A stretch of 64,000 nt of DNA from Lophium mytilinum (Eukaryota), in contig MU004193.1 of assembly GCA_010093605.1 (NCBI GenBank), forward strand, positions 343,321 through 407,320, written 5' to 3'. Below, one piece after another: positions 40,477 to 59,415 of the stretch (the stretch's first letter is position 1; every line of letters starts with the position of its first letter). Below the pieces are notes generated by a model. It was not told the origin of the DNA. It worked only from the letters and a program-made list of their open reading frames with translations, and searched no databases. The translations under genes and the position numbers were made by a program.

Positions 40477-42262
40477 CCCTATATGGCTGCTGCTAGCCAG
40501 GCATTGGAGATAGAAGAGTTTGATCTGGAGCGTGGCCTTGATATTGCCGAAGCAACAGAAAGTGCCACCAAGGGTAGAGTAGCTCAGCTACAAAGGCAGC
40601 TGTCGGATGCCTCGCAAGATATTTCTCGCCTAGAGAAAAAGGAGGCCGAACTTCGCGATCTCATGATCAGCAGTGCAGGTACGCAGTAAACAGCGGGTCC
40701 AGTAATCATTCAGGACTTCTCCGAATATTTGACTTATCTTGATATTCAGTTCTTAAAAGCTTCTCATTCGGGCGTTGGATTTGTGACGATACTGCAATAA
40801 GCAAAGCTGTTTTTATCCGGGCACACTTGTATGAGCATTCTTGCAGACCAAGACACTTGTTCACTCCATGAATATTAAGCAAAGCGCAATGACACCATGA
40901 TACTTCTTGCTTCTGTTTCTCTAAGCGAATCAATGTTAGTGCCTTGCTGAAGGTCAAATAAGAGTTTTCCTTTCTCTTCATGTGTTACACATCAGTTCGG
41001 TCTAATTTCATTCATGCGAAAGCGCCCTTGTCTTGTCGATTTCATCACGTTACAGTCAAGTTGGAGATCGTCGTGCACAGCAATGTCTGCCCAGAAACCC
41101 TTCATTTCTGTCTACCATGTAAACACACCAGGATATCCCGCCCCAGAGAAAGCTGGCCTCACACTGGAGGCGCCTTCAAGCCTCCAATCAACCGTCGTAT
41201 TCATCGTCAGCCTCACCAAAATTATGTCGACGACAGTAGTGGGTCCACTTCGAGGGATCCGAGGTCTCTTCAACCTCTTCGGCTACTTCACTCTAAGAAC
41301 CTAATTTTCCATGTCGGCCTTACTAACAAAGCCGCCTCTAGTAGACTATCGGCACTCCTCACAGCAACAAACACAAAAAAGACTTGGGGAAGACAGATAA
41401 CCCGCAAAAGTACCTGGAGTCCTGCCTATATCCTTTCCATCTCAGTAAAGAAACGGTAAAATACCGCGTGCTTTGATTTACTTCGATGCTGTTAACGTGA
41501 AGCAGTATGCCGAGAAAGTCGTGCTATTATCAAAATCTTAACACCATGCCAGGCATCACGATGGAGTTTCTGTAGTGCGGCGACCACCAGACATTGAGAG
41601 GGACAAACATGAACGAGGAGGGAGGGATGGTTGTTATTATCAACGAATCAGGGAACCACAGCCAGACATACCACTAAGGAAAAAGAGGGAACGGGATAAT
41701 CTATTGCCGACATAACGTCGACCAAGAACAAACGACAAGCATGCCCTAGCCAGCGTCCCCCACAAATAATCAAACATAACTTATCCTAAGTTTGAAGAAA
41801 GGGTTCACGCTGGACTTCATAAAGCCCTGGCTTGCAAAAGTTCGTTACCTCGGAGACAGAGGCCCGTCCCATTCTCAGGTAAGGCTGACTCTGGGTACAT
41901 CGGTTCAGTCGTGGGCAATATCACGTGTAAACCGTGAACCTAGGTCCCCTACTCGAATGGAAGAAATAGAACATACGATTGACATACCGTATTCTTGCTG
42001 CCAACCTAGAAGCCACGCTTAGCACGCCAACCTAAGGATAGATTTCCAGCGTATTAGGTCATCGCCAGCGACTTAATTTGTGGACCTGCTGTCCCAGAAT
42101 CAGCCTGACACTCGATCTCCGATCCTCTCGTCTTGCCAGGCTTCCAAGTTAGCAGGAAGAATGCGGTACAGCGAATGATATCAAAGGAACATTGTCGACC
42201 CCCGATTTTCAGTTTCCAGTACAACAAAGAGGCAGCCAGCAATGAGCCGTAATTAAGGCAGA

Positions 42263-43837
42263 TTTCCGGTCAGTTGCGTGCAAAGGGACCTCAGTCTCGG
42301 GAACGTGGACGCAGCCTCTTCCCTACCTGGCTAGTTCGCTCGCTTATAGCCAATTGAATCAGGAGGAAATACGCCTCCCTCAACCTGATCTTCCCTCGCC
42401 TGCATGTTGCTGCAGCATTTGGGGGCAGTGCAAAAGCCTTGCATGTGTTCAGCCAATAAAACTACAAGACGCAGACATCATTCATGTCCGGGCCACAGTG
42501 AGCGAAGTCCGTGATGTCGGTGGGGGCCGAAAGGAAAAACCCTAGAACCATCAAACGATGGTCGATTCCATCAAGAAAAGTTGCAATATCAATAAAGACG
42601 GCCTCGCTCCAGAAGTCTAGCCACTCTTCATGAAGTTTCAGCTCGTTGTTGTAGTGTTTTGAAGGAAAGAAGAATTCCACCAGCGACACGAGGCTTCGCC
42701 TACTGTGGGGCTGACGACTTGGGGGCTGAAGTCTTGGAGCCCCCTCTTGCAACCAATGAGACTATGAGAGCATCGCTCTGAGCCCAGTTTCAGTTCCCAG
42801 AGGCGAGTCGTCTGTGGCAAATGCTGAGCCGTGATTTTAGGGTTGGACTGGTTTGCGATTCGTTGCCTCATTGTTTAGCCGTGAAACAGCTCTTGGCAGA
42901 CACTCACTTCTGATCTCGAATCGGTCTAGTTTTTCCGTCGTGTGGAGTCTAGTTACATCTACACTTTAGCTCAACGACATAGGTTTTCCTCATCGACGGC
43001 CGGTTCCCAATCTTCAGCTAGATTGAGGTCTGGGCAGCGTGAGAAGAATTCAAAGCAAGACAGCCGTACCTTGTTCGCTCAGACCTGCCTCCATATGACC
43101 ATACATGGGATTGGGTACCTGCAATGCTAAAGGTTGGGACACTGCAGTCGAGTATGGGTAAAAATGAGTCATGATCTGAGACGGCTCTCCAAGTTCCCTG
43201 TAAACTGTGCGCTGGAAAATATAGCCTGTTAGAGGGAAAGAAACTTAAGGAAAGTGGGGAAGGGGGGGGGGGGGGGGCCGTTTTTTACCAACTTCAACCA
43301 CCCGTTACGGGCAGATTGATGCAAGGCTGACAAAACTACTTCTCAGCCTCACAGAAATAATCCTCGGCCTGATCGAAATGTTCCTCAGCCTGATCGAAAT
43401 ATTCCTCAGCCTGATCGAAATATTCCTCGGCCTGATCGCATTGGGTCTCAGCCTGATCGAATTGGGCCTCAGCCTGATCGAATTGGGCCTCAGCCTCGCT
43501 GCTCCAGAAAGTCCAGACCCTGCTCACGCATCCAATGGCATCGAGAGACATTTATCCGCACTGGAATTTTAGTTTCTATCTTTCGGTGGTGGACGGGTAC
43601 GAGCTAGGGTGTGCAGCAGTGCCATAAAGCCTTGCATATTTCCGGTCAGATGCGCGACAAAAGGACCTCAGCCTCGTCAGTTTGGACGCAGCCTCGTCTG
43701 CACTTAGTTAGATCGGTATTCTACCACCAATAAGGTGAACAGAAAGTTGCCTGCACCTGACCTAGTTTCCCCTCGCTTGCATATTGCTGCAGTGTGTTTT
43801 GGGGCTGTGCGGGAGCCTTGCTTGACTTTTGACCAAT
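42263..43837. repeat. Diverged ~195-bp direct repeat pair (42263-42457, 43639-43837)
   Basis: Shared blocks tttccggtcag, ggacctcag, tggacgcagcctc, ccctcgc.tgcat.ttgctgcag, agccttgc and terminal ccaat. Confidence 0.8.
43342..43497. repeat. 21-bp tandem repeat (~7.5 copies)
   Basis: ctc(a/g)gcct recurs every 21 bp; minus strand translates to FDQAEEY-like heptads. Confidence 0.9.
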
Positions 43838-57156: not shown

Positions 57157-59415
57157 TTCACGGCTCAGCATACCACAGTGTAAGTCTAAGAAGTTCCAGT
57201 ATGTGAAAATAGAAATCAGGTGCCAGCGACCATCTTACTCTATGGTCGTATCAGTTACAAGGAGATCATACTGCAGTGCTGCCTGGCCTGTGTCCGATAC
57301 GAATCATTCTCACCATCTGCTCACATGGTTGACCCACGATACGCGAAGCGTATGCACTGCCCCAGATTACGGCTCATCAGTTATGGACCTCCGTACCTAC
57401 GTGGTGAGTTTGAGATTTGATAATCGGGTGAGAGTAACCTGCTTTTAACGTCATTGGTCCCAAGCCGTTCCCCAGATTACGGCTCATCAGTTCTGGTGCG
57501 CCGTACCTGCGTGGTAAGTTTGAGATTTGATTATCGGGTGAGAGCAACCTGCTTTTGATGTTATTGGTCCCGAGCCGTTAGCGAGGGCATTTCTGCGTGT
57601 ACCAGGCACGCCAGGCTACGTCCATCCTCTTTCTTGGTTGGCTGAACGTATGCTAGGTGTTTTGCACTGCCCCAGATTACGGCTCATCCCCCCGCCGCTC
57701 ACTCGCGGCCTGCTGGTCGCCAACTGAGAACTGAAACTTTGTTGCGAGCATCCTACATTCGATATTACTGGTCGCCAGTTGTTCGCATTTGATCTCGTCG
57801 TTGTTCGCAAAGGCAAACTCTTACCAAGAACGGCTTGACCGGTCAGTCTGCCACCCTGTCATGTCACTGCTTCAACTCTCCTTCGCCCGGTTGCAGGAAC
57901 TGACCAGGGGCGTGCTAGGCACCAGCATGGGGGCCTCGATCTACTCCAGTCTGAATTTGTGAACTCGATGATTGGACGTGAATGTAAATCACGGCTCGTC
58001 TGAACGTTGAGGCTCTGTAAGAAAGGATCGCTCAAGAGACCTAATTTGGGAGTGGGCTGCACTCTTGCTGTGTAATTGGTTGGGAGCATAGACTCTACCG
58101 GTGAACTTTTCAGAGAATCTCGAGTCTGCCTTGCGCTCACCTACCTAGTCTTGTAATTGGACGAGGGATGTGCAACTCGTACAGCTCAGGCAAAATACGG
58201 CTTAGTAATCCGACGGCATGAAAATTCGAGGCTTCCTCGCATGCGAATAGAGAGCCAGGTGCCAAGAACCCTCACGCAGCCTGATTGGCCTTGAGCAACC
58301 CTTTGGGTCAGCCTTGAAAATCTGCCACGTCTCATAGCCGCGATCTGGACCGCTGACCACGAAGGCAGTAGAATTTGGGGTTTGTACCTTTCGGACACCC
58401 GATGAGTCCTCAAGCACCGCTCATCCCATCCCCTCTCTCATCCATTCTGAGAGCTGGAGGTTCGGATTGGGGGAGCCTTCTGTCAATGTGATGGCTGCAT
58501 TTAGTCAAATATGATGTAACTGCGAAGAGTTTTGCAGAAACCCACGATGCGAAAGCTGCCCCGGGATAAATCCGTTATTCTAAGCGCGCACAAGGGTGCG
58601 TGTCCTGATCTTATGGTTCTGTTGACTGCCCCGTGTGCCCCTTCTGGTATTACGGCCCATCTACTGCGCCACGATGACCGCTTGCCTCCGAGGTCTGGCC
58701 TTGAAACTGAAAACTGAGTTCTAGCAGCCGTCTTGCAGTCTTATTGGTGGTGAGTGGGCCTTCCTGCAATGCCGCGTGCGCCATCGCTTCATTTCTGCCA
58801 TCAAATGAGGTAAGATTACGGCTCAGCTGCGGCGGTGGGGGCGAGGTGATGGGGACTTGAAAACTGTGTGGAGGCAACTGTCTTGCAACCTGATTGGTTC
58901 AAAAGAGCCCCGGTGCGGGACGCCGTGTGGTGGTGTGTATTTTGCCAAAAGCGCAGGACGGTTTGATAGGAAAAATAAGATGGTAAACTATGTTGAAAAG
59001 TCGCATTGCAAGACAACTACGGCCTTTGAGCCTGGTATGGTGATATTTGATTGCTTCGAGTGTACTGAACGTTCTGCGAGGACAACTTGAATGGGTCCAG
59101 GCATCAATGACAAGGCTGAAGTCCGCCAGCTGAAAGCTCCAGCCAGGCACACAGGTCACGTGCCGTTCGGAGTTGGGGTGAAGAGGTTGGAAGGCTGTGA
59201 ATTTTTGGAACCTAGTTACCCCTAAATGGTCATGATAAGCCGAAAAGTATTCAGGTTTCACCCCATGATCTTATTGGATGACAATAAGATAAGTGAATTA
59301 CGGCTCAGCTAGACCAAGATGCCGCTCACCGCTACTTACTGTGGGAAAATCATGCCCCATCGATCTCGCAAATTTGAAAACTGGGCGCGAGCAGCCATCT
59401 TTCAACTCCATTGGT
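57157..59415 (+). promoter_or_regulatory. Right cluster of nine tripartite motif modules (plus orientation)
   Basis: ATTACGGCTCA-like cores at 57157, 57366, 57476, 57676, 57988, 58194, 58649, 58815 and 59297, each followed by an AACTGGG/AATCGGG-like box and an ATTGG-like box. Confidence 0.7.
57361..57580 (+). repeat. 110-bp tandem duplication of one module
   Basis: 57361-57470 and 57471-57580 are near-identical. Confidence 0.92.

Follow-up and report, generated by a model that had tools for sequence, protein, structure and literature searches.

What might a fungal NACHT protein and the SNF2-family gene beside it have to do with a short DNA word that is repeated, over and over, on both sides of the gene pair? 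The question is raised by 64,000 nucleotides of contig MU004193.1 of Lophium mytilinum (GenBank assembly GCA_010093605.1, positions 343,321 to 407,320 of the forward strand), a stretch that was analysed as a whole and is called the window below. It carries a divergent pair, consisting of a gene for a HIRAN-SNF2-RING protein (the SNF2 gene) and a gene for a NACHT protein that ends in C2H2 zinc fingers (the NACHT-finger gene), and this pair is flanked on both sides by arrays of a conserved 13-mer, ATYACGGCTCAGC, here called Box1. A first-pass annotation of the sequence had proposed a self-targeting switch of the STAND class (signal transduction ATPases with numerous domains), in which the fingers bind the arrays of their own locus. 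That proposal is partly supported by what follows: the arrays, the synteny of the pair and the conservation of the finger residues speak for it, and a broken finger frame in the mRNA of the window, an array orientation that is not conserved and the lack of arrays in half of the lineages speak against it. The arrays and their conservation, the synteny, the domain make-up of the two genes and their expression are established here and, to judge by its relatives, the locus represents a two-gene module with a wide distribution in the Pezizomycotina.

Enrichment of the word is confined to exact or near-exact copies. The core ACGGCTCA occurs 11 times without mismatch in the 64 kb, as compared to a mean of 1.24 and a maximum of 4 in 100 dinucleotide shuffles, and nine of these 11 lie within 42170-59415 (at 42243, 42825 and 44084 on the minus strand and at 57160, 57369, 57479, 57679, 58818 and 59300 on the plus strand). 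Five cores with one mismatch also sit in unit context (42874, 43875, 57991, 58197 and 58652), bringing the two arrays to ~14 copies, and the earlier count of about 12 copies flanking the pair was a fair one. The 10-mers ATTACGGCTC and TTACGGCTCA occur seven times in the arrays, never antisense there, and on neither strand of the 31,451 bp elsewhere in the window that have normal guanine-plus-cytosine content (GC); a longer word, ATTACGGCTCA, has seven exact copies in the window. Under looser matching, neither ACGGCTCAD with up to one mismatch (36 in the window vs 26.8 expected, a number that 8 of 100 shuffles reach) nor ATTACGGCTCA with up to two (21 vs 19.3 expected) is enriched. All array copies in the window point outward, that is, in the sense of the gene that precedes them.

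Where the first-pass annotation saw bare finger sites, the arrays do exist but their element is a composite one. The repeat unit consists of Box1, a weak TGAAAAC-like box and, 65-105 nt beyond Box1, the pentamer ATTGG, which is the complement of a CCAAT box; the weak box lies ~30 nt ahead of ATTGG, and the rest of the unit differs between copies. A blastn comparison of the left with the right array gave no match at E 1e-3. In the window and 24 related loci (254,216 bp), ATTGG lies 55-130 nt downstream of 15 of the 23 exact cores, as against five that have it at the same distance upstream and one with CCAAT on the opposite strand. Composites of ATTGG with a core of at most one mismatch number 29, as compared to a mean of 7.95 and a maximum of 13 in 20 shuffles and to one in the reversed sequence. 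In the left array ATTGG follows the Box1 copies at 42823-42835, 43873-43885 and 44082-44094, and in the right array it follows seven of nine copies at 65-100 nt. The distances from the end of Box1 to ATTGG gather at 65-66 nt (six sites in four lineages), 74-78, 81-85, 95-100 and 105 nt, a pattern suggestive of ~10-bp helical phasing of the CCAAT box (Rayleigh R 0.54 at 10.2-10.5 bp, empirical p 0.006, n = 20, in a post hoc analysis). Every one of the 23 exact cores begins with A, and the ATY 5' to the core and the GC 3' to it are also conserved. At one locus (L024, 11940-11990) a Box1 copy stands between the arms of a 7-nt inverted repeat (GTGAGGC..GCCTCAC), with a run of T behind the repeat; this bracket was not seen at other Box1 copies.

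The left array has some features of its own. About 200 nt at 42490-42690 are multi-copy in the DNA run, with contig breaks and a depth that reaches several-fold the baseline; several diverged RNA contigs, differing by C>T and G>A, match them, and they fall within a 99-codon frame (42462-42761, minus strand) without a Pfam match. A 21-nt tandem repeat occupies 43303-43551 (six listed copies, in overlapping 84-nt windows with a 21-nt step), whose minus strand holds a 71-codon open reading frame (ORF) for seven-residue repeats, ..AE[AEY][QYH]FDQ.., with ATG as its first codon; a C run of ~18 nt lies nearby, at ~43263-43281.

Relatives of the C-terminal half of the NACHT-finger protein occur across the Pezizomycotina, including Fusarium, Pestalotiopsis, Penicillium, Clarireedia and Apiospora, and full-length relatives of ~960-1065 residues were found by exhaustive HMMER search, in which animal proteins with many fingers dominate the counts. 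Metagenome contigs, often short, yielded 31 loci on scanning, which represent ~15 distinct lineages; 12 lineages, the window included, have at least 0.5 kb of flank 3' of the finger gene and could be assessed for arrays. Six of the 12, namely the window and loci L004, L007, L016, L020 and L024, bear arrays, which in these five loci lie 0.2-2.4 kb 3' of the finger gene. The expectation of the first-pass annotation that homologous loci would carry arrays is thus borne out in five further lineages and fails in the other half of the 12. In the 254,216 bp of the window and 24 loci, Box1 occurs nine times exactly and nine times with one mismatch, as compared to 0.015 and 0.56 expected, and these 18 strong sites are found in the window, L016, L020 and L024, with L004 and L007 carrying the variant CCAACGGCTCAGC. 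The 3 kb past the stop of a finger gene, which amount to 11.6% of the sequence, hold 14 of the 18, and three lie past the SNF2 gene of the window; the last is between the two genes of the pair in L024. An unbiased 9-mer count in 16 regions downstream ranks ACGGCTCAG and CGGCTCAGC first by spread (six regions), level with two other 9-mers that owe most of their spread to pairs of near-duplicate loci, and ACGGCTCAG and CGGCTCAGC are also the most frequent. Other shared 9-mers (AGAGCTGGA, ATTGATGCC and AGTGACGAG) were considered as conserved words and rejected, their spread being mostly over pairs of near-duplicate loci. The proteins at array-bearing loci are 37-43% identical to those of the window, and tblastx and blastn comparisons of the window flanks with the flanks of 10 loci (11 regions) found nothing alignable; the retention of the boxes over such distances points to selection acting on them.

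The setting of the arrays is also informative. In the window, L016 and L024 they lie between convergent genes, as judged by the next ORF or RNA contig, in spacers that are unusually long for DNA 3' of genes, and they are therefore not ordinary promoters. The SNF2 gene adjoins the NACHT-finger gene in eight of the nine lineages that could be assessed (the window, L001, L003, L004, L008/25, L009/13, L016 and L024), in divergent orientation except for a tandem arrangement in L008/25, and the HIRAN-type N-terminal domain of this neighbour is 32-38% identical in related loci; the SNF2/RING partner of the first-pass annotation is thereby upheld. In L023 the place where SNF2 would be expected is taken by a DDE_Tnp_4 ORF and a Myb-like ORF, a PIF/Harbinger-like combination. 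The N-terminus of the NACHT-finger protein varies between lineages, being DUF7708 in some and a protein kinase in others. In Fusarium subglutinans, the NACHT-finger protein and a protein named "RAD5C" are each on a contig of 123,245 nt, which is a hint only. HET-domain genes, one of them with TPR repeats, stand beside the module in L001 and L023, for which the listed neighbours have the coordinates 3340-5730 and 14273-15982 (L023) and 9166-12516 (L001).

The NACHT-finger gene of the window encodes, in order, a DUF7708-like domain, an NPHP3_N/NACHT domain, a winged helix, a conserved helical region, two atypical fingers and three C2H2 fingers. The NACHT assignment rests on PF24883 (expectation (E) values 5e-9 and 2.9e-6) together with a Walker A motif, GIPGAGKS, and that of DUF7708 on a match in one exon (E 4.2e-5) that at 23.8 bits lies under the cut-off of 25. 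The atypical fingers, FKCPRFSC...H...H and FRCIDEAC...H...H, have their cysteines and histidines (C235, C240, H256, H260, C266, C271, H287 and H292) invariant in the family. No repeat family of the ANK, WD40 or TPR sensor type was found by Pfam at the C-terminus, which has the helical region and the five C2H2-like fingers instead, and we take the product of the family to be a predicted STAND ATPase, with DUF7708 or a kinase at its N-terminus, in which fingers of Crz1 type replace the sensor repeats. Both genes are matched at 100% identity by contigs of RNA run X3, whose joints are GT..AG and CT..AC and which are therefore spliced RNA, so that both genes are expressed.

The three C-terminal fingers, FKCDHCPKVYSKRNNLKSH, YLCRQCGRPFPRDSDRNRH and YFCGG..WGCGKAFSRADILDNH, have K/N/S, R/D/R and R/I/N at helix positions -1/+3/+6, as the first-pass annotation had read them; the numbering agrees with the Pfam zf-C2H2 match at residues 351-373 of the ORF at 55394-56797. 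Among solved structures, canonical DNA-binding fingers match fingers 1 and 2, and finger 3 has a long insert between its cysteines. Among 32 family members, N365 and S368 (finger 1, +3 and +6), R390, D393 and R396 (finger 2, -1, +3 and +6) and R425 (finger 3, -1) are at least 90% conserved, while finger 3 varies at +3 (I/T/S/V) and +6 (N/T/R/S). By the canonical C2H2 code, fingers 3-2-1 would read A(C/T)G-GCG-NAG, which fits the observed ACG-GCT-CAG at eight of nine places, one of them N. The fingers presumably resemble those of Crz1, of which an insert in finger 3 is a hallmark and which has R at +6 of that finger. A word search with the finger region found only seven family members among 15 candidates, and a structure search with the fingers found generic C2H2 proteins and no solved structure of Crz1. 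The yeast Crz1 consensus is GNGGCKCA, in which K permits T at the place where the code does not fit (PMC9604740). The core ACGGCTCA matches this site at seven of eight positions: measured against GNGGCKCA as the calcineurin-dependent response element, all 23 exact cores depart from it by starting with A, and the remaining seven positions fit (PMC9604740).

The partner gene is of a recognisable kind. Its exons are 100% identical to an annotated Lophium mytilinum protein (P0099), its spliced RNA contigs, also at 100% identity, have CT..AC introns, and the gene appears intact. Its exon ORFs carry both SNF2 lobes (PF00176, SNF2-rel_dom, E 5.6e-27; PF00271, Helicase_C, E 1.5e-5 and 0.0033), and between these matches, in the ORF at 45202-46116, lies a RING-type pattern of cysteines and histidines. 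Pfam finds only a weak match there (Prok-RING_4, E 0.0057); the Cys/His columns are invariant or nearly so across 29 relatives, and PF14634 or PF13920 is found in relatives. The N-terminal exon (47311-47916, minus strand) has no Pfam HIRAN match. An AlphaFold2 model of it based on the 29 relatives (mean predicted local distance difference test score 76, and 83-96 over about the first 130 residues) was compared by Foldseek and matches crystal chains of the HLTF HIRAN domain with template modelling (TM) scores of 0.71-0.77 and a probability of 1.00, the best being 6kcs_A (TMt 0.77, E 5e-4), as well as a nuclear magnetic resonance model at 0.59 and Rad5 of Kluyveromyces lactis. Because the modelled N-terminus matches the HIRAN domain of HLTF and Rad5 and is joined to SNF2 and RING parts, the product is predicted to be a HIRAN-SNF2-RING protein of HLTF/Rad5 type; relatives of the gene bear database names such as "RAD5C", "DNA repair protein rad5" and "SMARCA3".

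How these parts might work together can be put as follows. The three C-terminal fingers would read ACG-GCT-CAG of Box1, with ATTACGGCTCAGC as the candidate target sequence; the CCAAT-binding complex would sit on the phased CCAAT box; the NACHT domain would, depending on nucleotide or signal, gather the bound protein into multimers on the array; and the HLTF-like partner, a predicted ATPase and E3 ligase, would then act on DNA or chromatin there. The assembly might serve autoregulation, a chromatin boundary, or a replication-fork barrier handled by the HLTF-like enzyme. Self-binding of the arrays by the NACHT-finger protein is plausible. The joint reading, in which an HLTF-like/NACHT-finger module has composite sites in cis that its own fingers bind together with the CCAAT complex, with the NACHT domain multimerising and the partner acting at those sites, is one that we hold tentatively, at somewhat less than an even chance; both the binder of Box1 and the role of the assembly are things that we infer. 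A bolder version is unlikely, if worth stating: a self-contained, sequence-addressed switch of DNA or chromatin, in which the STAND ATPase reads the 13-bp word, joins the CCAAT complex and directs a dedicated HIRAN-SNF2-RING enzyme, possibly as a programmed replication-fork barrier or trap, or as a DNA-sensing immune module. A complex prediction made without alignments for the HIRAN exon and the C-terminal 412 residues of the finger protein gave no verdict, at a score of 0.00.

Several observations weigh against the joint reading, and the most direct concerns the NACHT-finger gene itself. Its RNA contig (52847-56804) is 3562 nt long, which equals the span of 3958 nt minus seven introns (396 nt), and therefore contains no additional intron or indel; residues that match the family, ..FLAQFLQQD and then GLLLYLYQKCC.., sit in two different frames around 54578-54582, a stretch that is read in one frame in L001, L016 and L024. 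From the length arithmetic and the split homology we conclude that the frame is broken near 54578-54582 in both DNA and RNA. Translation of the mRNA runs for 354 codons before a stop, which in this genome puts the full-length finger protein beyond the reach of ordinary translation; a +1 shift at GAT-AGG-C is conceivable and unsupported, and the module may be decaying here. Another group of observations concerns the match between fingers and word. The fit of the finger code to the core, as claimed in the first-pass annotation, holds at eight places and fails in the middle triplet, where GCG is predicted and GCT is observed. That annotation had also explained the 5' A of the core by a change from R to N at +6 of finger 3, relative to Crz1; this is consistent with the data and is unproven; co-variation of the flanking motif with the helix residues was not found. 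No co-variation of the first base with +6 of finger 3 appears across the lineages of the family: those with R, S or T there have either an A-first word (L020, with T) or no array, and no G-first array was found in L001 and L009, which have R. The conserved word is 13 bp long, beyond what three fingers cover, and it resembles what we take to be juxtaposed basic leucine zipper (bZIP) half-sites, TTAC / TGAGC, so that another factor could read it. The distribution of the arrays adds further doubt. None was found within the flanks assessed (at least 0.5 kb) in L001, L003, L008/25, L009/13, L012/19 and L023, where arrays past the contig ends are possible, and a search of the array-free loci for NNGGCTYA variants in the first two bases and for other repeated 10-mers found none, nor any GNGGCTCA array; among these six lineages, L008/L025 have specificity residues equal to those of the window. 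The arrays point outward in the window, have every site on the minus strand in L024 and are of mixed orientation in L016, and the background for the word counts is 254 kb rather than genome-wide.

A rival reading, which we regard as somewhat unlikely, is that the arrays are ordinary regulatory modules for other factors, such as the calcineurin-responsive CrzA or a bZIP protein with the CCAAT-binding complex, that tune the expression of the pair, the fingers being an integrated decoy or a protein-binding sensor without contact to these sites. The CCAAT box is a general promoter element, and half of the lineages are array-free in spite of conserved fingers. The 7/8 fit of ACGGCTCA to the Crz1 consensus (PMC9604740) also favours it, as does a survey of the Sordariales that treats the zinc fingers of NOD-like receptors (NLRs) as putative integrated decoys (PMC12258605). 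The word is, however, more specific than the Crz1 element, with its invariant first A and its retained 5' ATY and 3' GC; its sites are in 3'-3' spacers and not in the shared promoter, with 1 of 18 strong sites intergenic to the pair; and in 254 kb it occurs only beside the NACHT-finger family, which is hard to square with a general stress factor.

It is very unlikely, in our judgement, that the arrays are leftovers, either of duplication in place or of the termini of a mobile unit with the pair as cargo, and have been kept by descent rather than for a function. The arrays do grow by tandem duplication: in the right array 57360-57469 is followed by its duplicate 57470-57579 (110 nt, 89% identity), and the left array holds two ~216-nt copies of the unit, 42258-42468 and 43634-43848 (68% identity). 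A stretch of ~40 nt is common to the two arms of the window in inverted orientation, the sense of the copies is mirrored there, and NLR regions are dynamic, with transposons inside two of the loci. Set against this is the conservation of the boxes between lineages with 37-43% protein identity and unalignable intervening DNA, in which neutral relics would have lost a 13-mer. Repeat and self-comparison searches of the window found no terminal inverted repeats (TIRs) or target duplications at the array edges, and the depth of DNA contigs is that of single-copy sequence (~143-155) over the genes and arrays, save at 42134-42767. It is scarcely credible that the units are small genes, each encoding an RNA or a short opposite-strand peptide, in which the complement of Box1 reads ..AEP and then a stop: the bases before Box1 (ATT, ATC, GCT and TTT) do give opposite-strand stops (TAA, TGA, TAG and TAA) and the CCAAT box lies ~100 nt upstream in that direction, but the open frames before the stop run from 3 to 87 codons with no common peptide or start, variants in L004, L007 and L016 (9949) have no stop there, an Rfam scan of 41500-60000 with E up to 1 gave no match, tblastx between the flanks was empty, and RNA contigs leave the arrays almost bare except for the multi-copy piece at 42490-42690, a fact that says little either way.

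Table 1. Coordinates of the features discussed, as positions in the window
Feature	Positions	Strand	Basis or setting
AT-rich blocks	1-23000 and ~48.5-52.8 kb		
Left array	42170..44100	-	3'-3' spacer after SNF2 gene
Left-array Box1 13-mers	42241-42253, 42823-42835 (exact ATCACGGCTCAGC), 42873-42885 (weak), 43873-43885, 44082-44094	-	
HIRAN-SNF2-RING gene, predicted HLTF/Rad5-like, 875 residues	44342..48103	-	Pfam, RNA contigs, fold model
RIP-degraded transposon in the shared promoter of the pair	48439..52841	not assigned	TIRs and target-site duplication
DUF7708-NACHT(NPHP3_N)-winged helix-C2H2 gene	53338..56797	+	Pfam, RNA contig
Seven introns of the NACHT-finger gene	53602-53659, 53684-53735, 53929-53987, 54372-54426, 55010-55074, 55187-55234, 55499-55557	+	RNA contig
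Two atypical upstream fingers	56090..56269	+	Family alignment
Three C-terminal C2H2 fingers	56444..56717	+	Pfam, family alignment
Right array	57157..59420	+	3'-3' spacer after finger gene
Right-array Box1 13-mers	57157, 57366, 57476, 57676, 57988, 58194, 58649, 58815 (exact), 59297 (exact)	+	

The window as a whole is made up of two kinds of DNA, AT-rich blocks with 25-30% GC and gene-bearing DNA with ~50% GC, the genes of which have short GT..AG introns, as seen in RNA contigs; its make-up is that of a filamentous ascomycete, and Lophium mytilinum is a dothideomycete. The AT-rich blocks bear the dinucleotide signature of repeat-induced point mutation (RIP), with TpA/ApT at ~1.8 and (CpA+TpG)/(ApC+GpT) at ~0.1. 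The 4.4-kb insertion between the two genes of the pair has TIRs of 135 nt (48439-48573 and 52707-52841, 98% complementary) that are nearly intact and a 9-bp target-site duplication, CCTCTCACC, at 48430-48438 and 52842-52850, and it is Mutator-like by these long TIRs and the 9-bp duplication; its interior has a GC of 0.28, with the two ratios at 1.81 and 0.10. Once it is subtracted, the start codons of the pair are ~0.8 kb apart. The RNA contig of the NACHT-finger gene begins at the edge of this transposon. The larger, 23-kb block (GC 0.27, TpA/ApT 1.78, composite RIP index 0.12) is abutted by normal genes, for a GH16 protein with PIR repeats (23798-25717) and an SMC protein (28189-31725). Tandem repeats of 24 nt and ~120 nt (36398-36517 and 38595-38907) lie in or near long frames without a Pfam family (35400-36983 and 38058-39075, minus strand). 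Beyond the right array, a 394-codon ORF (60385-61569, minus strand), the 3' part of which is under an RNA contig, contains two Cys/His-rich stretches that resemble each other, CTYRPCQRYGHDESRCWYKHPH and CTYEPCQRQGHDEDTCWYKSPH, and is without a significant Pfam family.

To our knowledge almost none of the numerous fungal NLRs has a known ligand or output. In the NACHT-finger family the position of the sensor is taken by a predicted sequence-specific DNA-binding domain, for which a conserved 13-bp word in cis is the candidate ligand, and the fixed partner of HLTF/Rad5 type next door makes the question of sensing and output in fungal NLRs a directly testable one. A literature search by word strings and domain names returned only primers and unrelated matter and no description of the gene pair or its arrays, and the module looks undescribed, as the first-pass annotation had supposed, and conserved; NLRs with C-terminal C2H2 fingers had already been catalogued in the Sordariales, where the survey counts 34 that combine NACHT with three C-terminal C2H2 motifs (PMC12258605). 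These are alike in that combination. The survey proposes decoys or binding domains, and the terms "SNF2", "helicase" and "DNA-binding" are absent from its main text (PMC12258605). Crz1/CrzA is alike in its C-terminal three-finger C2H2 domain and in a site that shares NNGGCTCA, with 7 of 8 positions; it is described as a serine-rich regulator with a calcineurin-docking motif and nuclear import and export signals (PMC9604740), whereas the NACHT-finger protein fuses its fingers to a DUF7708/kinase, NACHT and winged-helix assembly and, by this NLR architecture, is not a Crz1 ortholog in domain make-up. The Box1 site also differs from that of Crz1 in being A-first, extended to 13 bp and coupled to CCAAT, and +6 of finger 3, presumably R in Crz1, is N, T or S here.

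With HLTF (SMARCA3) and Rad5, enzymes of fork reversal and PCNA polyubiquitination, the predicted partner shares a HIRAN domain and an SNF2 ATPase with the RING inserted between the lobes, and it differs from them as a paralog that is kept beside an NLR gene. The polar fork barriers Tus-Ter and RTS1/Rtf1 likewise have oriented arrays of binding repeats in DNA that is not promoter, and the window has two opposed groups of repeats together with an enzyme of the fork-remodelling type; the mirrored orientation is seen only in the window. The bacterial STAND factors MalT and AfsR combine a STAND ATPase with a DNA-binding domain and multimerise on repeated sites when triggered by a ligand; they are prokaryotic, with other DNA-binding folds and with sites in promoters. 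CIITA and NLRC5 on SXY modules are NACHT proteins that work through a composite, helically phased promoter module with a CCAAT (Y) box bound by NF-Y and with recruitment of SNF2-type remodellers, although CIITA has no DNA-binding domain of its own and targets the promoters of other genes rather than its own 3' spacers. If the joint reading were true, the NACHT-finger protein would provide the first demonstration of direct DNA reading by a eukaryotic STAND protein, in parallel with the MalT-type regulators on the one hand and the CIITA enhanceosomes on the other.

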